A DNA stretch of 64,000 nucleotides from a virus (Duplodnaviria; Heunggongvirae; Uroviricota; Caudoviricetes). Shown here piece after piece: positions 1-55,394 of the stretch. The stretch lies in IMG/VR virus record IMGVR_UViG_3300028800_000057; one strand, 5' to 3'. How positions within the stretch are numbered: the stretch's first letter is position 1; each line of letters begins with the position of its first letter. The notes below the pieces were generated by a model. It worked only from the letters and a program-made list of their open reading frames with translations, did no database searches and was not told where the DNA came from. The translations under genes and the position numbers were made by a program.

Positions 1-5
1 AGTGG

Positions 6-518
6 GTGAAAGCTCACGCGATGATCGGAACTAACACGAACGTGGTAACTAGCATCGAGATTACCGATGGTGACTCTGGTGACTCCCCTCAACTTGCTGG
101 ACTAGTTGATAGTACTGCTCAGCGGTTCAATATGAAAGAGGTTTCGGCCGACAAGGCCTATCTTGCACACGCCAACTTAGAGGCCATTGCAAATGTTGGT
201 GCGGTCCCGTACATCCCCTTCAAGAGCAACAGTCAGGGTCAAGGTCCAGAGCAGTGGCAGAAGCTCTGGCATCTGTTCTGGTTCCGACGCCGAGAGTTTG
301 AGCAGCACTACCACCCCCGAAGCAACATTGAGTCCAGCTTCTCGATGATCAAACGGAAGTTCGGGGGCTCGATTCGATCTAAGCTTTACCCAGCTCAGGT
401 GAATGAGATACTAGCCAAGGTTCTCTGTCACAACCTAGCAGTCTTGGTGCATGAAATGTACGAACTAGGAATCGAACCAGAGTTCTGGGGTAGGCCCGCA
501 ATGGCCGGAGTTCATTAA
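6..518 (+). mobile_element. IS4/IS5-like DDE transposase, C-terminal part (runs off window start)
   Basis: Motifs VSADKAY, YHPRSNIESSFSMIKRKFG and KVLCHNL typical of DDE_Tnp_1 transposases. Confidence 0.85.
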
Positions 519-538
519 TCGACTCTACCGGCGTATAA

Positions 539-1537
539 TTGGTATCCTGTTATGATTCAGCGAGTAGATCCGTAGTCTTGATAAGTGGTAATGCCATGTT
601 CTTCAGAATCCAAAAAACTCCAATGATCCTGCTGGTTATTCTACTGACCTGGATCTCACGGGCTCTACCGAGTCTGGCCTCGGAGATTCGGCAACCTTCA
701 TCGGTTTTGACTTCAACCACAAGGCAGCCGACAAGCAAACCGCCGACGGACGACGAGTTACAAGCACTCTTACAACACTGGAAAGAAGAGTTCGGTTCAG
801 ATCCAAAGACCTCTCAGATAACGACCTGTAGTGATTTCGCAGCACAAGAGCGAAAAGTGAACGAGCTTGGAAAGATCGTGGCTGATATAATAGGCCGTAT
901 AAAGAATGCCACTAAGGATAACCCTCAAATGGCCGAGGGGCTAAAGAGTCCTTTGCTAAAAGAGCTAGCTGATTTGCGTAAAGAGCATTCTGACTTGGTC
1001 TATAGTGGCTATCGTGGAAAGATCTACCGTGACCTCCGAGCGGTTAGTGCAAGACTCGATGCCTTGCCAGTGTTCAGTGAAGGGTACTTTTTCTACTTGA
1101 GTGACCTGCGTGATGACTCTTGGGTGCAAGCAGTCGCAATAGTTCGACAAGCTATCAAGGATTCAAGTTGCGACTCAGAGTATCTCACAAAGGCCGCTAA
1201 AGAAGTTGATGACCGTGAAGCACAGATAAACGTTCTAGTAGCCAATGAAGCTCGATGCAGGGCCAGCCATAAATGTAAGCGTGAGCGGGCTCTGGCTGAG
1301 GCGATGACTGATAGTGTTCCAAATATTTGTGGTGATCTTGAAGACATTAAGTTATCCCAACAAAGACTGATTAGTCTCCAGAGTACGCCATCTGGCAGGG
1401 CTGACAAATACAACTTAGATGCAACCAGGGAGAGGATTCAGCTCGCCTGGGCAGAAGTGGCAAAGCTCAAAGCAACCTTCGCCAAAGAGACGGGCCAACA
1501 GTTCTCTGCTCGCCTGTGTTCAAAGATTCCACACTAG
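539..1537 (+). CDS. Putative secreted/membrane-anchored helical protein (start probably ATG 596 or later)
   Basis: 332-aa ORF; hydrophobic signal-like stretch MILLVILLTWISRALPSLA; coiled-coil-rich body. Confidence 0.6.
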   Translation: MVSCYDSASRSVVLISGNAMFFRIQKTPMILLVILLTWISRALPSLASEIRQPSSVLTSTTRQPTSKPPTDDELQALLQHWKEEFGSDPKTSQITTCSDFAAQERKVNELGKIVADIIGRIKNATKDNPQMAEGLKSPLLKELADLRKEHSDLVYSGYRGKIYRDLRAVSARLDALPVFSEGYFFYLSDLRDDSWVQAVAIVRQAIKDSSCDSEYLTKAAKEVDDREAQINVLVANEARCRASHKCKRERALAEAMTDSVPNICGDLEDIKLSQQRLISLQSTPSGRADKYNLDATRERIQLAWAEVAKLKATFAKETGQQFSARLCSKIPH

Positions 1538-1579
1538 GTTTCTAAGACGCCAGATACTCGGCAACCTCCGCGGGACATC

Positions 1580-2068
1580 TTGAAGCTTATCAGGCAATCA
1601 ACAGGGCCGTTAGAAATGGATATGGCCAAAGCAAGAGCGTTGTTTGTCTGTCTGAACGATAGTTACCCGCAGCTAGTGATCAGCCTCAGAACGAAGTGCT
1701 CGGACTTGGTTGAATCTCTCGGTAAGGATCACGCTCAAATAGCTGTCGATTGTGATTCGGACGGCCTCTTGAACGCAACTTGTGGCTGGTGGCATATTGA
1801 TTGCAACGAGGCCAAGGATGTAAAGTTCATATTTGGTGTTTTTGATAAGAAGGTAGTGTCTGCTTACGAGGTCAATGTTCCGGTTGAATCGTGGCCGATC
1901 ATGCCCCACAATCCGCCAGATGACCCACAGGGTGGGCGTAAGTACGTTCCCCCGACACATATTATTAAGAGTCAATGGGGGCTGGCTACGAGATTACAAC
2001 CCCCAAAACTAGCCGGGCCAATCGGTTACGATACCGTTGAAGTGGACTCAAACGGCAATCTAACTTAG
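1580..2068 (+). CDS. Hypothetical protein
   Basis: 162-aa ORF, no recognised motif. Confidence 0.5.
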   Translation: MKLIRQSTGPLEMDMAKARALFVCLNDSYPQLVISLRTKCSDLVESLGKDHAQIAVDCDSDGLLNATCGWWHIDCNEAKDVKFIFGVFDKKVVSAYEVNVPVESWPIMPHNPPDDPQGGRKYVPPTHIIKSQWGLATRLQPPKLAGPIGYDTVEVDSNGNLT

Positions 2069-2095
2069 CAAGGACGAGAACCCAAACAACGGCCC

Positions 2096-2434
2096 CTAAT
2101 CCGTTATAGCGTAGCCGTTACACATGATGGTTATTCGGTAATCATCGTCGAATGTAGCCCTGATAAGCTTCTCCAACTTTTCTACTTCACTACAAACCTT
2201 GGCCAAGGCAGCGGCCTCAATCGGCTTTTTCGGCGGTTGAGTCTTTTGAGTCCTCATCACGTTGATCTTTTTGAGTAGCTCAGGTTGACTTTTTGTACCT
2301 GCCAGTCGCGTAGCTAGACCATTGAGAGCAGCGGCCATTTTTTCCCTGCTGGGATTAGGCTCTTCGGTCATGGCCCACAAGGTTCTGAGTTCGGCTTGTA
2401 GATCTTCGGCTGTGGCGATCCTGTTCATACCCAA
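2096..2434 (-). CDS. Hypothetical phage protein (DLQAEL...PSREKMAAAL..LA.RLA motif)
   Basis: Amphipathic N-terminal motif of a kind I associate with large-phage proteins; likely start ATG 2428. Confidence 0.65.
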   Translation of the reverse strand: MGMNRIATAEDLQAELRTLWAMTEEPNPSREKMAAALNGLATRLAGTKSQPELLKKINVMRTQKTQPPKKPIEAAALAKVCSEVEKLEKLIRATFDDDYRITIMCNGYAITD

Positions 2435-2585
2435 CCGAGGTTACAAAAGGTTTAGCGGCTATCAAACTGCGGAGCTGGCTCGAAGTGGCCTTCTTGGGCA
2501 GAAATGAGAGTTGCCCACAAAAAGGTTGGACTAGGAGCCTTCTTGGGCAAAGCCATGCGCGACCCTGATCGGAGGGTTCAAGAGG

Positions 2586-14239: not shown

Positions 14240-14271
14240 AGTCCACTCAGTTACACCAGCACTACCTCAGA

Positions 14272-14631
14272 TCACCATCGAACTGTGCAGGCCTTCATAA
14301 ATAGCCCGCAACAGACAACTCCGGGAACCTGCTTCATACCTACTGGATTGGTCGCCTCGAACTCCGTCGCCGACCAATCGCTCATGCATGCAAAGAAACC
14401 ATGCCCGCGGGTCTGAATATCGGTGAAACCACTGTACCTGAGTGCACGTCGGGTATCAGCCTCGTTTGTCCAGGGCATCATCCAAAGAATGAGAATGATG
14501 ATCGATATTAGGTTGAGGAGGACTTTCATGCCCATCCGGTACACCGATATTGACGAATTATATGGAAAGTAGTTGACTGGTTTTCCAGAGTATGCGAGTA
14601 TCAACGGTGTTGGAGAAGTAGTTGACACCAA
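14272..14631 (-). CDS. Small membrane-anchored protein (start probably ATG 14530)
   Basis: Hydrophobic N-terminus; G.VCCGL.KAC motif. Confidence 0.6.
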   Translation of the reverse strand: MVSTTSPTPLILAYSGKPVNYFPYNSSISVYRMGMKVLLNLISIIILILWMMPWTNEADTRRALRYSGFTDIQTRGHGFFACMSDWSATEFEATNPVGMKQVPGVVCCGLFMKACTVRW

Positions 14632-14651
14632 TCGTCCACCGATTCTAGACT
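14622..14651 (+). promoter_or_regulatory. Sigma70-type promoter for the tracr/cas12 transcript
   Basis: TTGACA (14622)-N18-TAGACT (14646), followed by ATCAGG. Confidence 0.55.
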
Positions 14652-14656
14652 TTTAT

Positions 14657-14760
14657 CAGGGGACCTTCAACCCGTCATGTACGGGGTCCACCCCTAAAGC
14701 GAGGAACAAGTTCACTCGCTAACTGCCGAATCTTCAGTGATACGGCCCCACTTACTCGGT
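14657..14760 (+). ncRNA. Candidate tracrRNA
   Basis: CCTTCAA (14664-70) complements repeat nt 30-36; CCCCACTTACTC (14746-57) complements repeat nt 17-28 (one G:U); several stem-loops lie between them. Confidence 0.7.
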
Positions 14761-14856
14761 CAAGTCTCGATGGACGATTGGTGGCAACAACTCTACAACA
14801 TAGTGGGAATAAGCATAAAGCGAGGGTTACGACCACTCGCTGGAAAGGTAGCCTAC

Positions 14857-16596
14857 GTGGCAACCAAGAAGAAAATAGAGGAGATCAAGAAACCTGAGCT
14901 GACCGACGCTGATAAGGAGTGGGCCAGTGGGGAAGTTTACAAGCTCCTTGTAAAGTACTATCAGACGGCGGATCAACTAGGTCTGAAACCCAAGAAGCAA
15001 CCAAAAGTTTCAGTATACCTGTACTGCGGTTGTCCAATGGCCAAGTATGGAAGAGATACCCTAGGACGAATCCCTCTTGAGATCATCCAAGATCGTAACC
15101 TTGAAGGGGTCGAGGAAGCTCTGTTCAACCTTCCAGGTGCACTAACGCTCCCCATAGTATTCTCGGATCTTCCTAAGGAGGAGGCGGCCACCCTAAAGAA
15201 CCAGTTCTACGGGGTAGCCAGGACGCTCACTATGGGCCTCCAAGCCGTGTACCGACGTCGGTTCCAGGGTCCAATCGAAGGGAACTTGGAGACTGCAGCG
15301 TATCGAACCTGCAATGAAGGGATGGATGAGTATCTAGAAAGTCTAGATGACCCGCTTCTGAGGTTGATGCGGCCATCGTCAAACATAGTAGCGACTGCCA
15401 GTAAGGACTACTCCACCAGGTATGGCAACTGGGAGGCTAGAAATTCACAGGATAAGTCCCCACCATGGCCGAAGGTGACTGGGTTCCCAATCAAAACCGA
15501 CTGCTTTAGTATCGAGATCACTACCCCAGAAGCCTACCGAAAGCGTTGTCCTTCTGCCCCGGCCGAATTACCCAAAGAAATCGTCATGCTTAGTCTCAGA
15601 GTACTAGCTGGGGCGAGCAAGGGTCAACGAGTAGCACCTCTTGTTGCCCGAGTCCAAGTTCGAGGTAGCTCTGACTGGGCAACCCTCAAGAGGGCCATAA
15701 GTGGTACGAAGGGGTACAAGACAACTCAAGGTAGATTGGTTCTTGATGAAGGGAAGTGGGTGTTCAAGCTGGGGTTCAAGAAACCCCGACCCGAACCTTC
15801 AAAGGTCAAGACTGCGCTGGTAGTAATCCCGGCGCTCAATGACTTGGCGATGATTTACTCACATGAAGGTGATTACCTTCGCGGCAAGTACAAGGGGGCT
15901 GGGGAGGTCCTTCCGAAGGGGATAGACTCCTCGGGTTTCATCCACCTCAAGAAAATGTATGACTCCATGAGGTCAGCCCGAGCGCGCCACTTGAACTTCG
16001 TTGGTCGAGGTGCGAGAGGGCATGGTCAGAAGAGATTCCGACTATCACTAGAAGTAGTCGAGGGTAAAGAGACCGATAGGACCAACACCTGGATGGAGCA
16101 GCAGGCCTCCCATCTAGCCAGGTACGCCAATAGTATCGGTGCTATCGTCGGGATCGACGATATGGTTTCAGTCCCTACTGCTCCGGATCGCAAGATAGAA
16201 CGTCTCCTACGACGTTTTCCCTGGTGTACCTTCCGTGACAAGATCGCATGGGCTTGCAAGAAACATGGGGTCCCAACCAAGGTAATCAAACACTCTGGAG
16301 TCAAAGACTGCCCCATGTGCGGCGGGGAGAAGACCCTAGTTGACTCTGCTAACTATGATGGTCGTCCCGAACAGTGGTGCAGGACTGGTTGTGGAGCCGT
16401 AGCCCCAAAGAACCTATTCAGAGCCTGGAGACTGTTCAAGGTTCTTCTGGTCACTGATGCCGATAGCCTGGCGGTAGTTGATCAGGGCTTCAGAAATAAG
16501 GTTGAGGGTCTAATGCATATTCGTACACGAAACAACTCACCTGAAAGTATGAACCTTATGGGTGAACAACCTGATACCGCAGATGCAGCTGAATAG
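14857..16596 (+). CDS. cas12: Cas12f/TnpB-like type V effector with degenerate RuvC (probably nuclease-dead); about 579 aa from GTG 14857, ORF open from 14737
   Basis: KWVF.LGF, GARGHGQKR, IVGIDDM (E to D), FPW..FRDKIAWACKKHGVP, CPMCG/CRTGCG zinc finger; RuvC-I reads ALVVIPAL (no Asp), RuvC-III reads PKNLFRA (D to N); adjacent to array; SD-like GGAAAGG before GTG. Confidence 0.8.
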   Translation: MATKKKIEEIKKPELTDADKEWASGEVYKLLVKYYQTADQLGLKPKKQPKVSVYLYCGCPMAKYGRDTLGRIPLEIIQDRNLEGVEEALFNLPGALTLPIVFSDLPKEEAATLKNQFYGVARTLTMGLQAVYRRRFQGPIEGNLETAAYRTCNEGMDEYLESLDDPLLRLMRPSSNIVATASKDYSTRYGNWEARNSQDKSPPWPKVTGFPIKTDCFSIEITTPEAYRKRCPSAPAELPKEIVMLSLRVLAGASKGQRVAPLVARVQVRGSSDWATLKRAISGTKGYKTTQGRLVLDEGKWVFKLGFKKPRPEPSKVKTALVVIPALNDLAMIYSHEGDYLRGKYKGAGEVLPKGIDSSGFIHLKKMYDSMRSARARHLNFVGRGARGHGQKRFRLSLEVVEGKETDRTNTWMEQQASHLARYANSIGAIVGIDDMVSVPTAPDRKIERLLRRFPWCTFRDKIAWACKKHGVPTKVIKHSGVKDCPMCGGEKTLVDSANYDGRPEQWCRTGCGAVAPKNLFRAWRLFKVLLVTDADSLAVVDQGFRNKVEGLMHIRTRNNSPESMNLMGEQPDTADAAE

Positions 16597-17540: not shown

Positions 17541-18834
17541 GTGTTGATCCGATTATGAGTAGGTGGGGTTTGAAGGACTGTCGACGCAGAGAAGCGTGCT
17601 CAACGCATTCGTAGGTGTTGATCCGATTATGAGTAGGTGGGGTTTGAAGGGAGTTGCTCGTCAGTCCCTTCTGGGAGGGCTAGGCGGGGTGTTGATCCGA
17701 TTATGAGTAGGTGGGGTTTGAAGGTGACTCGCTGCTATTCCCGGTCGTCTCGGCACTTGGCGGTGTTGATCCGATTATGAGTAGGTGGGGTTTGAAGGGG
17801 CGAGGACGACAACGACGTTATGTCGTTGATCTCGAGTGTTGATCCGATTATGAGTAGGTGGGGTTTGAAGGTCTGAACTCGGTTGGGACTCGGTCAGGTA
17901 CTTGGTCAGTGTTGATCCGATTATGAGTAGGTGGGGTTTGAAGGCAGGTCATCAGAGTCCAGGTGTTGATCCGATTATGAGTAGGTGGGGTTTGAAGGAA
18001 TCCGACAAGCGGCCTCGCCGTAGACCTCACTTACGGTGTTGATCCGATTATGAGTAGGTGGGGTTTGAAGGTTCGATTTTGAGGCCGTCAATCTTGGCTA
18101 GCGCGTTGTGTTGATCCGATTATGAGTAGGTGGTTCTTGAAGGGATCAAGCCCGATGAAGGTGTTACGCCGGGCATGAACGTGTTGATCCGATTCTGAGT
18201 AGGTGGTGCTTGAAGGGCCGTTAGCTAGCCCCATCGCATAGTGACTAGGGTTGTGTTGATCCGATTATGAGTAGGTGGGGTTTGAAGGGTTATGTCAGCC
18301 ACACGCCAACGTGGCCCGTTCTCGCGTGTTGATCCGATTATGAGTAGGTGGGGTTTGAAGGATTCGGCAAAGGGAGGAAAAGGGGGCCGGATTTCGCGTG
18401 TTGATCCGATTATGAGTAGGTGGGGTTTGAAGGGGCTCACGAGCATTAGGATGTCGGCGCGGGTGGGATTGTGTTGATCCGATTCTGAGTAGGTGGTTCT
18501 TGAAGGTCGCCTCGCTTGGCATAGTCAATTTTCGCCAATAGGTGTTGATTCGATTCTGAGTAGGTGGGGTTTGAAGGCAATCTATCGATTGGAACCATTG
18601 CTAGTCGACTTCTTGTGTTGATCCGATTATGAGTAGGTGGTTCTTGAAGGTTCGTCGGAGAGTTCGAGCACAACGGCCCAAATGCGTGGTTGATCCTATT
18701 CTGAGTAGGTGGTGCTTGAAGGATGCATTGACTACGACCAGCAACCCGCAATAGCCAAGTTCTGACCCCATTATCAGTAGGTGGGGTTTGAAGGGCCAGG
18801 TGTTGATCTGATTCTGAGTAGGTGGTATTGAAGG
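17541..18834 (+). CRISPR. CRISPR array, 19 repeats / 18 spacers; repeat GTGTTGATCCGATTATGAGTAGGTGGGGTTTGAAGG (36 nt)
   Basis: Repeats 1-8 identical; degeneration from 18108 onward places the leader on the cas12 side; spacers 35-38 nt except one of 18 nt and one of 5 nt. Confidence 0.98.
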
Positions 18835-19262
18835 GGGCCCCACATCACCTCGTAGAGCTCGTCAAAGCCTTCCGCCAGGGTTGGGTCCACGAACCTTTGA
18901 GCCGTGATGAGGATGCCCACGCGCGGGACGAATGCCTTCCCTGTCCGTTGAGCATTCCTCTCCATAGACTGCTGAACATTGGATCTGAAATGGTATACGA
19001 TGACCCGTGCGGAGTAGTAACGCGCCAGAGCTACCAACTCAGCCCGTTCTTCAACACTCGGGTTCGTGTTGTCCACTACTAGGGACTTCCCTGCCTCGAG
19101 AGCCTCCCGAATGAGCAGAGTCTGTCTCACAGACTTTGGAGTCCGATTCTTGCGACTACGAGTCATCAAGTCCTTGCTCACAAGGACATAGTCGGGAAAG
19201 AGCACCTTTTGAAAGGTGCTCTTTCCCGATGCCTGCAGGCCAACAAGAATGATGAGATCCAT
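18774..19262 (-). CDS. AAA_33 / polynucleotide-kinase-like P-loop protein
   Basis: LIILVGLQASGKST Walker A; VVDNTN; 3' end overlaps terminal CRISPR repeats. Confidence 0.85.
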   Translation of the reverse strand: MDLIILVGLQASGKSTFQKVLFPDYVLVSKDLMTRSRKNRTPKSVRQTLLIREALEAGKSLVVDNTNPSVEERAELVALARYYSARVIVYHFRSNVQQSMERNAQRTGKAFVPRVGILITAQRFVDPTLAEGFDELYEVMWGPLQYHLLRIRSTPGPSNPTY

Positions 19263-28079: not shown

Positions 28080-28424
28080 TCATGTAACTAAATTAGATAG
28101 GCCTAGTAACTGGACTTCCTCGGGAGTCAACTTGGAGAGTGCTCTAGTACGGATAGACTCTAGCGCAGAGTCTGCATCAGCCAGAATCACTGGCAAGTCA
28201 ACTAAGTAACCTACAACCCCGTTGGTCAAGACAAGTACCTTGCGCGTGCCCGTGTAGGAAGAATCACCCAACCCCTTCGAATAGGCCAGAGCTACCACAT
28301 CACTCGTGAAGCAACCCTCTGACTTGGTACAGCAACCGTCCTCATTGGTTCGATAAACCTCAGTCATCTGAATCACACGGAAATCAGTGAGAGGCTTTCC
28401 AATCAGGTCTGTTACATCGGACAT
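28080..28424 (-). CDS. Hypothetical protein
   Basis: 114-aa ORF; GGTGTA 9 nt upstream. Confidence 0.7.
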   Translation of the reverse strand: MSDVTDLIGKPLTDFRVIQMTEVYRTNEDGCCTKSEGCFTSDVVALAYSKGLGDSSYTGTRKVLVLTNGVVGYLVDLPVILADADSALESIRTRALSKLTPEEVQLLGLSNLVT

Positions 28425-28448
28425 GCCACCCAGTACACCGAGAGGATC

Positions 28449-28961
28449 TCAGATCACCCACGCACGATGATACCGACTCACCCGAATAGGTTCAGCCCAG
28501 TCAGGGCATGAACCAAGGGTGTTCGACCGGTAAAGTCGAATAGCCGCTATCGTTGCGCCTGTAACAATCGCCCCAGCGGCATGAGGGATAGCGATAGTAC
28601 CATCAACCCCTCGAGTTACCCTCCAAGTGTTACCCCCAACGCCAGTATCGACACTAGTAACCAGTATGATCTCTTGGTCAACCTGAACCTTAAACCTCGA
28701 TTGAGCCGGGAATCTAGTTGAGTTCGTGACGTGTAGTGTTGACTCACGCTCCCAGATGTTGAACATCAAAGAGGATTTCACCAACGAGTCCTCACTCACG
28801 AAGTTCTCAGTAACCCACTCCCATAGGATGCCGACCGGATGCCCCAGTAAGCAAGTGCCCTCCCACCCAAAGTTTGGGGACCGCCCTACCGCGTCCCCCG
28901 TAACACCCTGAGAGGGATACGTAGAGGGACAGTGCCGGCAACTGTCACAAGGGTTAGGCAT
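28449..28961 (-). CDS. Cys-rich protein with inserted tail-type beta domain and C-terminal SRYHRAWVI tag
   Basis: CxxCxxCP.TYPSQG shared with 30163-30498; insert VDQEIILVT...VTRGVDGT.A..HAAGA.V. Confidence 0.75.
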   Translation of the reverse strand: MPNPCDSCRHCPSTYPSQGVTGDAVGRSPNFGWEGTCLLGHPVGILWEWVTENFVSEDSLVKSSLMFNIWERESTLHVTNSTRFPAQSRFKVQVDQEIILVTSVDTGVGGNTWRVTRGVDGTIAIPHAAGAIVTGATIAAIRLYRSNTLGSCPDWAEPIRVSRYHRAWVI

Positions 28962-29401
28962 CAGATGACCGGATCCCGGTTGTACCTCGAGACCCTGTCA
29001 ACCGGTGTCAATGGCTCCTCAACGGGTGGTTCCGATGAGCCAGTGGGGTCACCTAGGTATCGAATCGTTGCCCATGGACCAAGACCCAGAATCCTCTCTT
29101 GTAGTACTGGAGCTTGTCCCCTCTGAAAGGTGAACTCAACATGGGTGTTCCGAGGGCCCCCCAAATTCGTGAGGGTAAACCCACCCCAGCCACCCCAGTA
29201 TGTACCACCTATCCAAACACGAGTATAAATGTCGTTCTCCGGTACTCCAGGGTCTTCAAAGCCCACCTCGTCAATAACACTACGAAGACTCTGTACCGCT
29301 ATGATAAGATCGCTCGGCCCAAACTCGTGATACCCACCACGACCCGTACGCCCCTTGACCACGAATACCTGATCGCTCTCGTCCACTTCAATCGTTGGCA
29401 T
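28961..29401 (-). CDS. Hypothetical protein with SRYNRDPVI tag (start ATG 29401)
   Basis: GGTGTA 11 nt upstream of ATG 29401; TGATG coupling to next gene. Confidence 0.7.
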   Translation of the reverse strand: MPTIEVDESDQVFVVKGRTGRGGYHEFGPSDLIIAVQSLRSVIDEVGFEDPGVPENDIYTRVWIGGTYWGGWGGFTLTNLGGPRNTHVEFTFQRGQAPVLQERILGLGPWATIRYLGDPTGSSEPPVEEPLTPVDRVSRYNRDPVI

Positions 29402-29420
29402 ATACCCGAGATTACACCAA

Positions 29421-29621
29421 ATGTGGATTGACCCAAAGAAGCAAAACCCCGCGGTCGGAGTACCCGTCAGAGCCCTCCTCCGAGGGGCTACCACTGGGAA
29501 GCTCGTCGAGTCCGTTCTTGTCCACGTCGACGAAGATGACTGCTACTGGAGAACCGCTGACGACAACTCAGAGATAGACTTCAACTGGGAGGTAATCGGA
29601 TGGCTTCCGGAAGTCAAATGA
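29421..29621 (+). CDS. Small DUF551-like protein
   Basis: MWID.....P...V....VIGWLP pattern. Confidence 0.55.
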   Translation: MWIDPKKQNPAVGVPVRALLRGATTGKLVESVLVHVDEDDCYWRTADDNSEIDFNWEVIGWLPEVK

Positions 29622-40903: not shown

Positions 40904-42259
40904 ATGGAGGTCGTTCCCTTTAATAATCCGTTTCTACTCAATCTTGGGGGTATGGAAAACCACGAAGAACTAGCTTCTGAGCACCCAACTAACCCTTGCC
41001 CTGCTCCCATACCAGAAGGACAGGTCCAACAAGCTATCCCCGAGGAGCTGCTTCGAACTGTAGTTGACGAGCTGAGGGGTATACGAGCCGATCTATCCGC
41101 CTTGGGTGATATGCGACAACTCGTCAAGGACCTGGTGAACTCCTTCTTGAACTTAGAGCCTCGAGTGGCGAAACTAGAGCACGATGCTGCACATGGGTTC
41201 GGTATTTGCAAGTACCACCATGATGGGGAAGTCAATAAGGACGTCTAACCCATATTAGTCGTTGAGATCCGGTCCCTGTCGTGCGTAATAGGGATCATGA
41301 GACATCAACGAGCATACACGATGAGAAGTACCCGTAGACGCCCACCATCACCCGAGAGTTTAGCCCGCGCAGTCAGAGGGGTTATGGGGTTGAAGGATAC
41401 AGATCCACTACCTACGCCCGAGGAGTTAGAGGCAGCCCTCCTTCCTCACGTAGACAAGGTCATGCCCAATGGCCTTGTGCTTCGAATGACCAGGGACACG
41501 GACGGTACACCCATGTTCGGAGTTGAGAAGGTCCAACCCACTCTCACATCAAACCCATGACCTTGAACCCGACCACCGAGAACAACGCCCAGCCCTTCAC
41601 CGGTAGTCAGAGGGTCATCCTGGAGAAGCGGACCCCTGAAGGCATCCTAGACCTGTCCGATCCCCAGCCCCCGCTCAAGGTCCATGATGTCGACGGCCGA
41701 GGACGTGGTACGCCCCGGGACCTCACCTTCGACGACGTCTACCGGATGATGTTCGATGCATGCCCAGACGCCCAAGGCTCCTGGGAGACACTCCGAGCTT
41801 GGCTCGACTCCAAGAGCTGGGTCGTAAGAGCCAAGACATGGTGAAGTACCGTAAGCTCTCAGAGCGAGACATCCTCCGGTGGGATGACGAGTACCGTCCA
41901 TACCCCGAGAGGATGTGGATGAAGGTCCACGGACCCGCTACAGGCTCACTCCATACGGTAGGGCTCCACCCGTACCCAGGGTTCGAGTACCGAAGGAAGA
42001 TACCATGCCCCAAATCATCGAACTGAACCGTCGGCTCTTCATCGAGTGGTCCAAAGGGACGCTCCTGAAGCGGGACCGTAATGGCAAGTGCATCGTCCTA
42101 GACGGCTCCGACTTCGCCCGTCAGTGCGAAGGGGTGGAAGCGGCTCTTGACCAAGGCGCTACGCTCTACCTCACAGACGATGCCGGCAAGCGTATCACCA
42201 AGATCACCTCCGACGGTAAGGGCTACGAAGAAGAGCTCCTAGACGAAGATTCTTGTTGA
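40904..42259 (+). other. Run of small + strand hypothetical genes (40904-41248, 41297-41560, 41557-41844, ~41838-42026, ~42002-42259)
   Basis: Coupled ORFs; class A promoter at 41262. Confidence 0.6.
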
Positions 42260-51038: not shown

Positions 51039-52526
51039 ATGTCTGCTGATCTGATTCAGAGAGTAGGGCTTTGCCTCAAAAGGGTTGACTTTTGAATAAG
51101 TTCTATTACGCTGGAATCAGGTCTCATTCCTTCGACCAAAAGCGAGGGTTACGACCACTCGCTAAAGCCTCCGGTTAGGAGGGTCTCATACTTTTGAGGC
51201 AAAGAGAGAGTAGCGTCAAGATTCATCGAGGCATCAGCGCCTATCTCCGTAAAGGAAGTTGACGGAAGGATTGAAGTCTCTGGGCCTTATGACAAGATGA
51301 AGGACTTGATCCCTTACCTACGTGGGAAATTCGAGTATCGCGGTCATGACCACACTTGGTGGGAATCCAAAGCGAAAATGACCCCTCTGAAGATTAAGAA
51401 TCTTCAGAAGAAGGTTGATGCGGTCAATGGGAAATTTGGCCCCAACCCTGTGAAGGTGGAAGAGCCAGCGGATGCTAAGGCGGTCAGGATTGAGGAAGCC
51501 AAAAAGCTGCTCAGTAAAGCGATCCATATACGGGTTACTGGATTGATCTTTAGTCCCATCGGGGTCGATGGTGCTCAATTGACAGGAGCTCTTACTGATC
51601 TGAGGGTGTTGATTAACATGTCTGGTGGGGATTATGGCCCAGAGTTCTCGAAGTTCTATGTGCAGAATATCAAACCAGTAGAGTTTAGTAAGCTCCTGGA
51701 CGCGATTGAGGACCAGGGTAGGCTTGTGGCCAAGTCCCTTGCTGATCTGTCTAGTATAATTCCGCGCAAGTTCCCGAGCTTGCAGATTAACGTGGGGACC
51801 AATAACGGGAGCTACTTGTTCGTAGTCTCTGGAAAGACCTATGACTTCAAGGATGATATCAAAAAGCTGGTACCGGTAACATTCAATGGTCAAGGGAGTT
51901 TCTGGTGGGCTCCAGTCCATCAGGTTAAGGAAGCTCAAGTAAAGAAGCTAATTGAGTATCTCGAGAGTGAAGAGCGGGCGAGAGCTGAGAAATGGAAGGC
52001 TGAAAAGGTGGAGAGGACACCTACCGAGAAAGCGAAGAGGCCTAATCGTAGAGGGGATCATTGCTTAAACTGCGGGGCGTGGGTAGATGCTGGTGATGGT
52101 TACTTAGTAGACCATTGGGACAATGATGAGGACGAGCTAGTCTATAAGGTGGTTCACTCTGATCCTAGTGTCTGCGCTGAAGTCAAAGAGGCGGCCAGAA
52201 TACGCCGTGAAAAGGCTAATACGAAGCGTGAGGCTCAGGGAAACTTGTATAAGCTTTGTGCAAAGTCAGAGTACTATGTACAAGGTACAGGACATCGACC
52301 CCCAGGTGAGCAGATCTGGATTGACAAGACTGCACTCGGATATGGGGGTGGGACGTGGGTAGTTATTGAACCCGGTGATAACTACTTCTGGTATGTCAAG
52401 AATAACGGGGCTGACGGGGACGATTGGTCCAACAACAATGTCTCGACAGGTGGTGCTGGGGCCATTGGATATCGACTTCCGATGACAGAAGAAGCGCGCG
52501 TTCTCATTGACGTGGCAAAGGAGTAG
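51039..52526 (+). CDS. Gene split by a 147-bp insertion; restored product about 446 aa (MSADLIQRVASRFIEAS...), downstream part annotated from 51297
   Basis: Removing 51067-51213 fuses ATG 51039 in frame with the 51297-52526 ORF. Confidence 0.75.
51067..51204. mobile_element. 138-bp MITE-like insertion
   Basis: 14-bp TIRs CTTTGCCTCAAAAG (51069-82) / CTTTTGAGGCAAAG (51191-204); 9-bp direct repeat AGAGAGTAG (51058-66, 51205-13). Confidence 0.85.
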
Positions 52527-52535
52527 AGGTTAGCT

Positions 52536-53219
52536 ATGTCAGATCCCATTGTTGAGGTGGTGGTGCTCCGTTACAAGAAGGCTGCCGAGAGTTGGCTCAC
52601 CGAAACCAGTGATCAACTACCTCTTGAGGATGCAGAAGTATACATCAGGGAAGATGTCAAGCTAGTTCGTTGGTACAAGGCCAAGTGCTTGTACCTAGTC
52701 CCGATATTCAGAAGGCTGGCAGAACCGTTAGAAGCCCCCCAGATATTGGTCTCTGCAGATCGGATAGAGAAACGAGTTCAGGAGCTGGATCAGCTCATGG
52801 CGTTAGTTCAGGAAGGCGCCAAGCTGTTCAAGAAGGCTCAGAGTGAATTTGACCAACTCATCGAGGATCTTGCAGATAAGAAGCCTCGAAGGGGTGGGCT
52901 CATTGAGGCTGTCTACGACCTACCGAGTATTGAATCCATCCTCAAAGTAGCCAAGGACGCTCGTAAGATCCAGGACCGTTTCGTCAGGGAGGATGATGAC
53001 TACCATATCGACTGGGTATTGGAGGAGTATCTTGGCTCCGAGGCTGGGATTGGTAAGAAGATAGAGAAGAATGGGGCCAACCTTAATGGGTGGTTCACGG
53101 ACCGGTTCGTGGGCGTGTGGGTTCTATATGGTTTCGTGAAGTACTTCGTCGACACTGACTACATTCAATCGATGGTGGACGAGGTTCGATCCAATAAAGA
53201 AGTGGATGATAAGCCTTGA
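52536..53219 (+). CDS. Hypothetical helical protein
   Basis: 227-aa ORF. Confidence 0.7.
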   Translation: MSDPIVEVVVLRYKKAAESWLTETSDQLPLEDAEVYIREDVKLVRWYKAKCLYLVPIFRRLAEPLEAPQILVSADRIEKRVQELDQLMALVQEGAKLFKKAQSEFDQLIEDLADKKPRRGGLIEAVYDLPSIESILKVAKDARKIQDRFVREDDDYHIDWVLEEYLGSEAGIGKKIEKNGANLNGWFTDRFVGVWVLYGFVKYFVDTDYIQSMVDEVRSNKEVDDKP

Positions 53220-53257
53220 AAACTCGCTTACTGGTGTAGTATTGTCACTGGTAAGCT

Positions 53258-53626
53258 ATGAAGACTAGAATTTCGTATATAGAAGAGATGTGCAGAAGGC
53301 TCCCTTGGATGGGTAAATCCAAGGTTGAAGAGTTCTTACAGGCTCAAGCTGCAGCCATTACTGATGCGCTTAACGCTGATAGCGGTGGGGTTCCGACGGT
53401 GGTGATACCTGGGGTGGTCAAGATCACATCGAAGTACCGGGCGCCTCAACCTGAAAGAATACGCAGAAATCCTATTACAGGGGCCCCGCTAGTAGTTGGA
53501 GCTAAACCGGCATCACGCAAGCTAAAGGCCAAGTTCACTACGAGTATCTGTGCGGCAACCGGTGGTTTGGTGGCGACCGTACACGGACCTGGGGCTAAGA
53601 CTCGAGAGAAGCAGGAAGCCTCCTGA
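53258..53626 (+). CDS. HU/IHF-like DNA-binding protein
   Basis: IPGVVKI...R...ER.RRNPITG....VGAKPASRKLKAKF. Confidence 0.85.
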   Translation: MKTRISYIEEMCRRLPWMGKSKVEEFLQAQAAAITDALNADSGGVPTVVIPGVVKITSKYRAPQPERIRRNPITGAPLVVGAKPASRKLKAKFTTSICAATGGLVATVHGPGAKTREKQEAS

Positions 53627-53914
53627 TGACGGCCAAGTGTACGGTATGTGCGATCCCGTACGGTGAAACTCAATGTGTAACCTGTGGTGCTGAAGCACCA
53701 CAGGTTGAAGTTGGGCTTGTGCGAGAGCTGTATGAAGTAGGAAGTAATGGCCCACCGATACTCACTACAATAATGAGTATCCGGGAAGGTGTCGAAGTCG
53801 AGCCCGTTCGATGTGACAAGTGCGGCGAGTTGACGGTCAGCCACATTGAGAGTCCGGATGGGAAGAAAGGGTGCCTCAAGTGCTTTAGAGAGTTCTTGAA
53901 GCTAAGAGAACCGC

Positions 53915-54115
53915 TCAGTCAAATACCCGAGCCAACTCTTCCCGGACGATTGTCCTCAACGGACCTTCCTCTTCAGGTCGATTCTGCCAAAGTCTTGTGA
54001 TCTCTCGAGTTAGAAGATCGGCCGTAAACTCAGATAGGGTTTGACTATTGCCTCTTGCTAGTAGCCTAGCTTTCGCATTGGTCTCGTTGTCTACTTCGGT
54101 TGTTATGTGTTTCAT
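53915..54115 (-). CDS. Ribbon-helix-helix-like regulator
   Basis: MKHITTEVD.ET..KA..LA......TLSEF..DLL. Confidence 0.65.
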   Translation of the reverse strand: MKHITTEVDNETNAKARLLARGNSQTLSEFTADLLTREITRLWQNRPEEEGPLRTIVREELARVFD

Positions 54116-54190
54116 GGGTAACCTCCTTGAGTCCTAGCTTGTACCTAGTTTCTCTGGTTGGCAAGGAGTTCAGGTGCATATTCCCACATG

Positions 54191-54239
54191 AATTCCACTA
54201 ATTAGACACATGATCATCATGTGTCTAATTAGTGGAATT
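54191..54239. repeat. Perfect 49-bp palindrome (24-bp arms, 1-nt centre)
   Basis: AATTCCACTAATTAGACACATGAT-C-ATCATGTGTCTAATTAGTGGAATT. Confidence 0.92.
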
Positions 54240-54421
54240 GAAATGATTTGAACTCAAAAGGTCTCCGGTGTAGATAGTACTTAGCCGACGGCTTAGCGGT
54301 CGATAGTCCAGGGGTTGTTGTGCGCACCCTCTCCCTGGTGAGATGCCCAGCTTCCGTGTTCGGTGGGGAACCGAGGCCAGGTTCCTGACACAAGTCAGGA
54401 ACCTGGCCTTCTCCTTATCCA

Positions 54422-54772
54422 TTAGTTGGCGTTGGGTACAACCTGGGTGAAGCGTACTCTACCGCCCTCAATGAAGTGTGGATCTAGGACCACCTTGATA
54501 TGCTCTGCCCCTGGGACATCAAAGCTGGTCAAAAAGTCAGGACCATCTTCAACCTGTTTGATGGTGTACCTCTGTATATGCAGCCGATCCATCATATCCC
54601 TGAGCTTGTCGACATCGGTGAAGCAAGGCAGGTACTGATAGTTGGATCCGGGCATCATAAAGAAGTGAGGTTGGGTTCCATCCCACGGGAATACCGTCCC
54701 GGTTAGGTTTACTGTTTTCTCAGTGGTTCCTTCTACTCGATGAGGTTCCAGCATCCCTGCACAGTAGCACAA
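54422..54772 (-). CDS. Hypothetical (SseB-N-like YLPCFT motif)
   Basis: 116-aa ORF. Confidence 0.55.
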   Translation of the reverse strand: MCYCAGMLEPHRVEGTTEKTVNLTGTVFPWDGTQPHFFMMPGSNYQYLPCFTDVDKLRDMMDRLHIQRYTIKQVEDGPDFLTSFDVPGAEHIKVVLDPHFIEGGRVRFTQVVPNAN

Positions 54773-54776
54773 TCAC

Positions 54777-55106
54777 TTGTGGAATAGAACAAGTATGAAG
54801 CTCAAGCCGGTAGTAGACGACACAGGGAAACTTCGCGGGTACGCATTCTTCTGCCCCGGGTGCGACGGGGCACACATATTTTACACGACGGGGACCGTCG
54901 TCTGGGCGTTCGATGGGAACCAAGAGAGCCCTACGTTCAGTCCTTCATTGCTGAACACTTGCCCTAATCACCCGGACCCGAAGCAGCACCGGTGTCATCT
55001 GAACCTTACGGCCGGGAAGATTCAGTACCACGGGGACTGCAGTCACGACCTTGTTGGGAAGTTAATTGACCTACCAGAGTGGCCTTGGGCACCCGGAGAG
55101 GTGTAG
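54777..55106 (+). CDS. DUF6527-like Cys/His protein
   Basis: F.CPGC...H...W.FDGN.ESPTFSPS...CH..LT.G.IQY..DCSH.L.G. Confidence 0.75.
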   Translation: MWNRTSMKLKPVVDDTGKLRGYAFFCPGCDGAHIFYTTGTVVWAFDGNQESPTFSPSLLNTCPNHPDPKQHRCHLNLTAGKIQYHGDCSHDLVGKLIDLPEWPWAPGEV

Positions 55107-55252
55107 CCTAGAGTATCGTCTGGAGCGCTCGGAGCTGAATGGTTTTGCATAGCTACTGAGGCCGTGTGGCTGCTGATGGTTAGGGATAGGCCAGCACCGT
55201 AGTGCAATGCGGAGCTGGCCGTTTCTCTTTACTTGGCAATGCTCCTAAGTGG

Positions 55253-55392
55253 TTGATTTTGTAAGTTGGGTGAGTTATGATCTCATTGAATCAGGATACA
55301 TTCTTGATTTATTGGTTTTGTTCTTTCGACCAAAAGCGAGGATTATGATCACTCGCTAATGTCCCAGGTTAGGGAGTCCTTTTAGGGCAAAG
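55253..55392 (+). ncRNA. Promoter plus tracr-like structured RNA homologous to 51085-51204
   Basis: TTGATT-N17-TATGAT, GAATCAGG, TTCGACCAAAAGCGAGG-attatgatc-ACTCGCTAA, GGTTAGG loop, GGCAAAGAG. Confidence 0.6.
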
Positions 55393-55394
55393 AG

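Follow-up and report, generated by a model that had tools for sequence, protein, structure and literature searches.

Why would a phage that encodes its own CRISPR system keep pieces resembling that system's helper RNA far from the CRISPR locus, among and even inside unrelated genes? The question is raised by a 64-kb stretch of DNA (hereafter the window), a portion of a large phage genome (IMG/VR record IMGVR_UViG_3300028800_000057), in which a trans-activating CRISPR RNA (tracrRNA) gene, a Cas12f-like effector and a CRISPR array stand together and in which a preliminary description had singled out two remote tracr-like cassettes. We find that the two cassettes are copies of a non-autonomous, gene-less transposon, a miniature inverted-repeat transposable element (MITE) of 140-200 bp found in a clade of megaphages, and that the RNA it carries is in its 5' half, as judged by alignment and covariation, a homologue of the tracrRNA that serves the apparently nuclease-dead Cas12f system of this phage. 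Since the cassettes are mobile, their distance from the CRISPR locus carries no meaning. The relatives in which further copies were found are three IMG/VR megaphage fragments (G001, G003 and G004), a 473-kb contig (L132) whose Cas12 is 86% identical to that of the window, and short metagenome contigs.

The cassettes are copies of a gene-less transposon

The element contains no open reading frame (ORF), and its ends read GGCTTTG...CAAAGAG, with terminal inverted repeats (GGCTTTGMCTCAAAAG against CTTTTGAGGCAAAGAG) that agree at 13-14 of 16 positions; in L097 the repeat is shorter and CTTTG alone is held in common. Among related megaphage contigs and metagenomes we distinguish 13 left junctions, each standing for an insertion of its own; at 9 of these 13 sites the element is flanked by a 9-bp target duplication that is perfect or has one mismatch. 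A covariance model, R1, trained on 12 MITE copies and on no tracrRNA, scores copy A at 105.8 bits and copy B at 90.6 bits (coordinates in Table 1); together with pattern scans it recovered two further copies in G001, one in G003, one in G004, two in L132 and seven on short metagenome contigs. An element differing from copy A by 1 nt occupies an unrelated site in L089, and copy B has a sister at a different site in L094, both with the altered left end GGCAATGC and both missing the right duplication. The site of copy A is also found empty: in L002/G002 the sequence runs uninterrupted as ..ATCC-AGAGAGTAG-CGTC.., with a single AGAGAGTAG, and encodes a 409-aa protein of 89% identity that reads through where the window has 140 extra bases.

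Some junctions are not simple. Those of L099 and L132(-) are rearranged, and in the comparison of L097 with L099, as well as at L132:3950-4320, window 55235-55394 and L094, flanks from different loci are joined or the right duplication is missing. This suggests that recombination between MITE copies, or one-ended events, rearranges these phage genomes, but some of the contigs, at 1.5 kb, could be assembly chimeras. In G002 (14270-14293), GGTTGACTGCAAGAGGC comes immediately before what is, in L099, the right flank of the MITE, and could be the remnant of an internally deleted element.

The cargo RNA is related to the tracrRNA of the resident system

Covariation with the CRISPR repeat supports the identification of the non-coding gene upstream of the effector as a tracrRNA gene. 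We compared the window with seven further loci, drawn from six homologous proteins, whose effectors are 50-86% identical to its own, and all seven have the same non-coding gene upstream of the effector and a gene for a partner of about 220 aa downstream. The upstream genes align through the promoter, GG(G/A)GACCTTC(A/G)(A/G)CC, a small hairpin, hairpin 1 (hp1), a GC-rich hairpin and the anti-repeat, and in L001 and six further loci the conserved stretch starts with the promoter and reaches about position 14796. The 5' heptamer and the repeat end change together (CCTTCAA with TTGAAGG in the window, L001 and L132; CCTTCAG with CTGAAGG in L137 and L138), and the 12-nt main anti-repeat likewise changes in step with its repeat from locus to locus.

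The cassettes share with this gene the promoter region (..AGAAG-AGTTGAC), the ATCAGG box (at 14655, 51116 and 55290), CCTTCGACC and hp1, in every cas12f locus compared, so that the relationship to tracrRNA proposed in the preliminary description stands. So do most of its local observations: we find the second hairpin, the terminal GGCAAAGAG and the anti-repeat-like motifs CCTTCGACC and CTTTCGACC (C(C/T)TTCGACC), and the bulged hairpin said to occur in four copies is real, as the pattern AGCGAG-N10-ACTCGCT has exactly four plus-strand matches in the 64 kb (14698, 14819, 51141 and 55335), a count that none of 100 shuffles equalled. The 25-nt identity reported between the leader of cas12f and copy A also holds, at 25/25, with the difference that the copy A partner of 14817-14841 lies at 51139-51163 and not at 51148-51172, which is 9 nt off.

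Across 15 tracr, leader and MITE copies, 98.5% of the hp1 cells pair. The outer stem, the bulged A and the first inner G-C pair are invariant and the next two inner pairs vary in a compensatory manner (GC/AU/CG and UA/AU/CG), in agreement with the covariation first noticed among the four window copies (GGT/ACC, GAT/ATC, GAA/TTC, with a constant bulged A). The hp1 of the MITE varies at the same positions as that of the tracrRNAs, including those of loci down to 50% protein identity, and the hp1 of the L135 and L136 tracrRNAs is letter for letter that of copy A. R1 matches all eight tracrRNAs over their full length at 26-31 bits (26 for the window tracrRNA), in the order hp0, hp1, hp2, anti-repeat. 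The most likely history is that a transposon captured the promoter and 5' half of a tracr gene, because the tracrRNA is far more widespread than the MITE. For pairing with the repeat the MITE keeps just the 7-nt 5' motif, with G:U pairs, and its copies hold no conserved position beside the cas gene, being mobile and lying 6-40 kb away or on other contigs.

In a consensus fold of 12 copies (RNAalifold) the MITE RNA forms four hairpins in which 97.9% of cells pair, against 30-48% in slid controls; there are 6 compensatory pairs, a number equalled in 1 of 500 shuffles, and L097 has a wholly different hp3 stem that is still complementary. By this measure the RNA is under selection for structure. 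A pseudoknot between the GGTTA loop and the 5' GACC, put forward earlier, is rejected: the loop is GGCTA, GGATA or GGAT in other members and GACC never changes. In a scan for sigma-70-type consensus promoters the tracr gene (TTGACA-18-TAGACT) and copy B pass, but copy A fails on a weak -10; the long subfamily has TTGACT-17-TATTCT. The last hairpin and its 6-nt tail end exactly at the right end of the MITE and no terminator follows either window copy; transcripts should therefore continue into the flanking DNA.

Rfam gave no match at gathering score anywhere in the window, and none at E<=1 for the MITEs or the tracrRNA. A strong intergenic hairpin at 54177-54250 has a weak match to mir-3118, a mammalian microRNA (30.5 bits, gathering score 89), which is surely chance. 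Nor did we find copies in hosts: the exact hp1 pattern, searched in one genome each of 185,579 species, gave 62 hits, the chance expectation, and none with element-like flanks.

Table 1. Features of the window discussed in the text; positions count from the first letter of the 64-kb stretch
Feature	Position	Strand	Remarks
3' part of a full-size insertion sequence of the parent family	1..2554	+	transposase C-terminus 3-518; right end CTTCTTGGGCAAAGCC 2539-2554
tracrRNA gene of the Cas12f-like system	14653..14796	+	promoter 14622-14651; 5' heptamer CCTTCAA 14664-14670; hp1 14696-14720; main anti-repeat 14746-14757 and following
Solitary hp1 in the cas12f leader	14817..14841	+	15 nt before the GTG start at 14857; identical to copy A hp1
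Cas12f-like effector	14857..16596	+	match to Cas12f1 9i8y, E 4.5e-6
Partner gene, about 220-236 aa	16605..17315	+	after the effector in every locus; no strong Pfam hit
CRISPR array, 19 repeats	17541..18835	+	repeat 3' end GAGTAGGTGGGGTTTGAAGG
Gene interrupted by copy A	51039..52526	+	MSADLIQRV, then the insert; stop at 51093-51095
TTC and left target duplication of copy A	51055..51066	+	TTC 51055-51057; AGAGAGTAG 51058-51066
MITE copy A, 140 bp, short subfamily	51067..51206	+	inserted after codon 10 of a 446-aa gene; left end GGCTTTGCCTCAAAAG, right end CTTTTGAGGCAAAGAG; flanked on both sides by AGAGAGTAG
-35-like TTGACT of copy A	51087..51092	+	just inside the left end; TTGAC/TTGAT here in every family member
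Structured RNA of copy A	51120..51200	+	hp0 51120-51137; hp1 51139-51163; hp2 51168-51182; hp3 51183-51200; followed by the tail AAAGAG, the end of the element
Right copy of the target duplication of copy A	51205..51213		AGAGAGTAG; overlaps the last AG of copy A
MITE copy B, 160 bp	55235..55394	+	subfamily with altered left end GGCAATGC
Promoter-like TTGATT-17-TATGAT of copy B	55253..55281	+	
hp1 of copy B	55333..55357	+	

TTC, once CTC, stands on one side of every MITE insertion

The insertions follow a one-sided rule. At all 13 left junctions (11 tabulated sites plus two read individually) T and C stand at -11 and -10, and T at -12 in 12 of them, giving TTC 12 times and CTC once, directly 5' of the left duplication. 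The motif is always on the promoter side, no GAA appears on the right, and the flanks show no conservation at any further position. The rule extends to the four copies that have no right duplication; copy B, one of these, has TTC at 55223-55225, 9 nt ahead of the element. Among element-free alleles, TTC is kept at the site of L097 (in G002 and G003) and another site has TCC.

The geometry is that of a 5' protospacer-adjacent motif (PAM) or target-adjacent motif (TAM). Where the element is absent, TTC lies immediately before the bases that come after the 3' tail of the RNA in a filled site; in the filled site itself, GAG stands in front of these bases. Guides aimed elsewhere are rejected, because the opening 14 nt of the right flanks have no match beyond their own locus and the empty site homologous to it. 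Insertion directed by the spacers of the array is rejected too, as no spacer matches any MITE flank.

TTC is absent from the insertions of the parent insertion sequence (IS) described below, at which the corresponding positions read agg, tca, gcg, gtg, tgg, ga and gac. The difference between 13/13 for the MITE and 0/7 for the parent IS (Fisher's exact p about 1e-5) indicates that TTC goes with the RNA cargo and not with the transposase family as sampled. MITEs are present in all three records known to carry this cas12f (the window, L132 and G001), and the MITE/tracr model has no match in five virus records with the parent IS, three of which are at least 90% complete (one is 452 kb and 94% complete).

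The parent insertion sequence

The MITE has its parent in an IS family with which it shares the left terminus and the 9-bp duplication, and whose transposase combines SWIM and DDE_Tnp_1 domains. We sampled the family through homologous transposases at 51-63% identity in 11 IMG/VR loci, eight of which were examined for ends. Full elements are 2.0-6.7 kb long, carry diverse cargo beside the transposase gene, and have ends GGCTTTGCC...GGCAAAGCC with 9-bp duplications in 7 of the 8; their right terminus reads ..CAAAGCC where that of the MITE reads ..CAAAGAG. The IS at the start of the window, with right-end GGGCAAAGCC at 2545-2554, two or three cargo ORFs without Pfam match and a left end beyond the window, is likely the mobiliser of the MITEs. 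Its ORF at 3-518 matches DDE_Tnp_1 (PF01609) at E 4e-18 and 66 bits, and those of L147 and L141 at 84 and 86 bits, against a curated cut-off of 23, an assignment at the level of the IS4/IS5 superfamily. PF01609 has no match in G001-G004, records that are 2-45% complete.

Other viral contigs (L139-L149) hold cargo of this family between GGCTTTGCC ends, each with 9-bp duplications. The cargo of L141 (1199-4543) is an N6/N4 DNA methylase plus a BglII-like restriction endonuclease and that of L147 a protein of 336 aa that belongs to no known family, while L149 has been reduced by deletion to 2 kb.

The resident CRISPR system

The resemblance of the effector to Cas12f is confined to the regions of RuvC-II and the zinc ribbon. 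Seven aligned homologues have an invariant Asn (ALN-D/S-LA) in place of the RuvC-I Asp, Asp in RuvC-II, and N, T, I or D in RuvC-III, so that the protein is apparently nuclease-dead. A comparison of some 700 kb of related phage DNA with about 80 spacers, taken from the window, G001, L132, L137 and G002, gave one independent match, a G001 spacer (L001:4763-4799) that is 100% identical over 37 nt to G004 (L016:11059-11095). This suggests phage-against-phage targeting by a dead-Cas12f array. No protospacer or array match came from IMG/VR spacer scans or GenBank-phage array searches. Close copies of the spacer and the protospacer occur on contigs of the Ga0172380 and Ga0172381 metagenomes (L092, L095 and L100).

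Several further features of these loci deserve mention. Six repeats of the window array (18108-18722) have GGTTCT or GGTGCT for GGGGTT, which weakens pairing to the end of the main anti-repeat and leaves TTGAAGG in place. The solitary hp1 in the cas12f leader neighbours GGAAAGG and is restricted to the window and L132 lineage: it is diverged in L132 (L132:9958-9988) and absent in L001, L133 and L135-L138. It could be an autoregulatory site or a product of gene conversion. G003 holds one MITE and no homologue of the window Cas12 in its 228 kb, and has a second, different CRISPR-like array (G003:86200-86900, L110) with repeats ending ..GAAGCCTACCAGATGGCTTTGCTAC. G002 encodes a distant (27% identity) Cas12/TnpB-like protein at 28215-29489 and has a two-repeat mini-array at about 41640-41730, with repeats ending TGTGGGAATTGAAGG; neither a MITE nor a tracr match was found in it.

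Gene context

Copy A bisects an N-terminal peptide, MSADLIQRV|ASRFIEA (51039-51066 and 51207-51240). The frame resumes as ERVASRFIEAS... and the first canonical start is the ATG at 51297, so that the rest of the ORF is startable only from Met38. MITE copies are variously co-directional with their neighbouring genes, convergent to them or internal, and both window copies point into a downstream ORF. Between 13488 and 63537 the window has about 20 sites of the form GTTGAGA-N15-GCGCGTAATA-N6-ATG, in which the start codon falls at the expected transcription start. The tracr and MITE promoters, with their sigma-70-like TTGAC, differ from this type.

What the RNA of the element might do

The reading we favour, with a probability of about 0.4, is a speculative one: the MITE RNA would serve the dead Cas12f as a natural single guide, in the manner of an omegaRNA, and would be directed against its own site in the state without the element. 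In such a mechanism hp1, shared with the tracrRNA, would load the RNA onto the protein, and the 9-nt duplication and right flank, read out past the right end of the MITE, would serve as the guide. With TTC in the PAM position, this guide would have a full match solely where the same site lacks the element, as it might in a relative infecting the same cell, and the carrier would be immune since insertion separates TTC from the target. The nuclease being dead, the effect would be one of binding and not of TnpB-style cleavage: binding might handicap element-free genomes, or might help to fix or steer insertions, and either would explain why insertions are exclusively TTC-adjacent and in one orientation. 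The suggestion of natural single guides that use flanking DNA as spacer, one of several roles listed in the preliminary description, is strengthened by the missing terminator at the element end and by the TTC (once CTC) that abuts the target at 13/13 MITE sites and 0/7 parent sites. The pattern of fixed and changing hp1 positions common to MITE and tracrRNA gives indirect support for binding by a Cas12 protein, and the co-occurrence of MITEs with this cas12f agrees with the same reading.

A number of observations weigh against this proposal. Homing by cleavage in the manner of TnpB is rejected, as the RuvC Asp residues of the effector are missing. The PAM side of the sole protospacer reads GCCAGTTT, that is GTTT and not TTC, and a TTY PAM would leave the C at all 13 sites unexplained. 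The main anti-repeat of the tracrRNA (12+6 bp, 14746-14770) has no counterpart in the MITE, which has a self-contained hairpin there, and the tail AAAGAG differs from the repeat 3' end TTGAAGG. A pseudoknot between the hp0 loop (TTCTTT) and this tail was considered and rejected, with two one-sided breaks and zero compensation. The duplication is missing at 4 of the 13 sites (copy B, L094, L099 and L132(-)), empty sites mostly keep TTC and show no consistent PAM escape, and the transposases checked for target preference are just 51-63% identical to that of the window.

Alternatively, the RNA may only mimic a tracrRNA: it would sit on the dead Cas12f by way of hp1, perhaps pairing with the last 7 nt of the repeat, and act as a decoy or modulator (a transposon-borne RNA anti-CRISPR) or as a weak alternative tracrRNA, not as a guide. 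An RNA decoy, which had been raised before, is possible, and hp1 and the position of the heptamer are indeed kept, with CCTTCGA or CTTTCGA able to pair with TTGAAGG through one or two G:U; the absent main anti-repeat fits a mimic, and the G004 MITE carrier is targeted by a G001 spacer. Phage RNA anti-CRISPRs that imitate CRISPR RNAs are known (PMC10651486). We nevertheless consider this unlikely, as it leaves TTC-N9, the fixed orientation and an RNA that ends at the transposon end unexplained, and three carriers encode the very system to be inhibited. The narrower claim of an alternative tracr loses ground by the lack of that same anti-repeat, a defining feature of a tracrRNA.

A different view is that the tracr promoter and 5' half are a captured passenger without any CRISPR-linked function, and that TTC-N9 is a preference of the clade's own transposase or of a host factor. 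Members of the IS family do carry varied cargo, such as the methylase and BglII-like endonuclease of L141, and the sole CRISPR protospacer has TTT; a passenger, however, has no reason to keep four hairpins by compensatory changes across subfamilies, or an hp1 that varies just where that of the tracrRNA varies, and the 0/7 at parent sites speaks against a plain transposase preference. A one-sided asymmetric motif with a single orientation is moreover unusual for a DDE transposase acting on near-identical ends, judging from the targets of IS10, IS903, Tn5 and Mu. For these reasons we regard a mere passenger, too, as a doubtful explanation. More improbable still is a mobile promoter and 5' leader, in which a sigma-70-type promoter and an effector-binding hairpin would place downstream genes under Cas12f control. 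The direction of both window copies would suit it, as would the solitary hp1 that the window and L132 have next to the ribosome-binding site of cas12f. Against it, elsewhere the element points at the 3' end of a gene or at a gene running towards it, copy A disrupts a gene whose in-frame start comes no earlier than 51297, and TTC-N9 is not accounted for. The earlier idea that such leaders would make the Cas protein control a regulon fares poorly against copies that variously follow, face or lie within their neighbouring genes.

Returning to the self-targeting single guide, a bolder extension is that the dead Cas12f and the IS4/IS5-type DDE transposon form a working partnership unrelated to the Tn7-like CRISPR-associated transposons (CASTs). 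The transposon would carry a tracr-derived guide, PAM reading (TTC), with or without a flank guide, would set the site and orientation of insertion or survival, and the result would be a cleavage-free, RNA-guided drive between co-infecting megaphages. We think it quite unlikely that all of this holds.

Comparison with known systems

At the level of the transposon, the element shares with the IS903 group of the IS5 family and the IS10 and IS50 groups of the IS4 family a DDE_Tnp_1 transposase and a 9-bp target duplication, and its terminal GGCTTTG is presumably the same as that with which the IS903 inverted repeat begins. It differs from these groups in the N-terminal SWIM finger of the transposase, in the MITE right end ..CAAAGAG instead of ..CAAAGCC, and in the asymmetric TTC, which is missing from full IS copies. 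Type V-K CASTs (Cas12k with Tn7-like TnsB, TnsC and TniQ) likewise combine a dead Cas12 with a DDE transposon within a genome and insert in a specific orientation relative to a PAM. The insertion point of V-K elements lies 60-66 bp away from the PAM, their duplication is 5 bp long and they carry their own Cas gene, whereas TTC here adjoins the 9-bp duplication of an IS4/IS5-type transposon, with no sign of a physical link.

The resident system resembles V-U24 among type V CRISPR-Cas systems by description: a non-canonical RuvC-I and an associated small protein, there a helix-turn-helix protein (Altae-Tran et al. 2023, PMC10691335). We found in that paper no tracrRNA, PAM or transposon link for this group. 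Dead Cas12f lineages in which tracrRNA and half-repeat are re-fused into single guides have been described (PMC10691335; 10.1101/2025.06.10.658865). As in these sigma-E-associated guides, the dual RNA would here have collapsed into a tracr-derived single RNA with a 3' guide, for which more than 10 nt suffice there. Those guides, however, are fixed beside the effector gene, keep the 3' end of the repeat and target host promoters, whereas the MITE RNA is transposon-borne, has another 3' tail, and coexists with an array and a tracrRNA. Racrs, solitary repeat units (PMC10651486), are also small RNAs of phages that imitate a portion of a CRISPR RNA and might thereby tie up a Cas protein, but they mimic the repeat and are not described on transposons, while the MITE RNA mimics the tracrRNA and its carriers own the system.

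The closest parallels are the re-fused single guides described above and the PATEs, gene-less elements whose omegaRNAs TnpB employs in trans (Meers et al. 2023, PMC10055086). Like PATEs and other gene-less IS200/IS605 derivatives, the MITE is protein-less, has a putative guide scaffold reaching its right end with the flank as would-be guide, and has a short motif on the other side (which would be the TAM at the empty site). PATEs differ in their Y1 hairpin ends and in a scaffold taken from the 3' end of tnpB, where the MITE has inverted repeats, a 9-bp duplication and a tracr-derived scaffold, and the candidate effector of the MITE is CRISPR-associated and nuclease-dead, in a megaphage host. 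In the literature on MITEs with tracrRNA, Cas12f, TnpB or guide RNA we found no description of a DDE-type MITE that carries a tracr-like RNA. Even without a guide role, the analysis has identified in large phages an IS family that carries cargo, together with a MITE derived from it, whose copies lie at points of rearrangement and can interrupt genes of the phage. If the proposal is true, the RNA would be a natural compact single guide for an unstudied effector family (V-U24), and a selfish element would, through the dead Cas12f, be turning an RNA-guided protein to its own ends in a new manner that needs no DNA cleavage. The prevailing view is that guide RNAs moved from transposons (omegaRNA) to CRISPR (tracrRNA plus crRNA, the CRISPR RNA); here a CRISPR helper RNA appears to have returned to a transposon, and to one of a different class, with a DDE transposase, inverted repeats and a 9-bp duplication.

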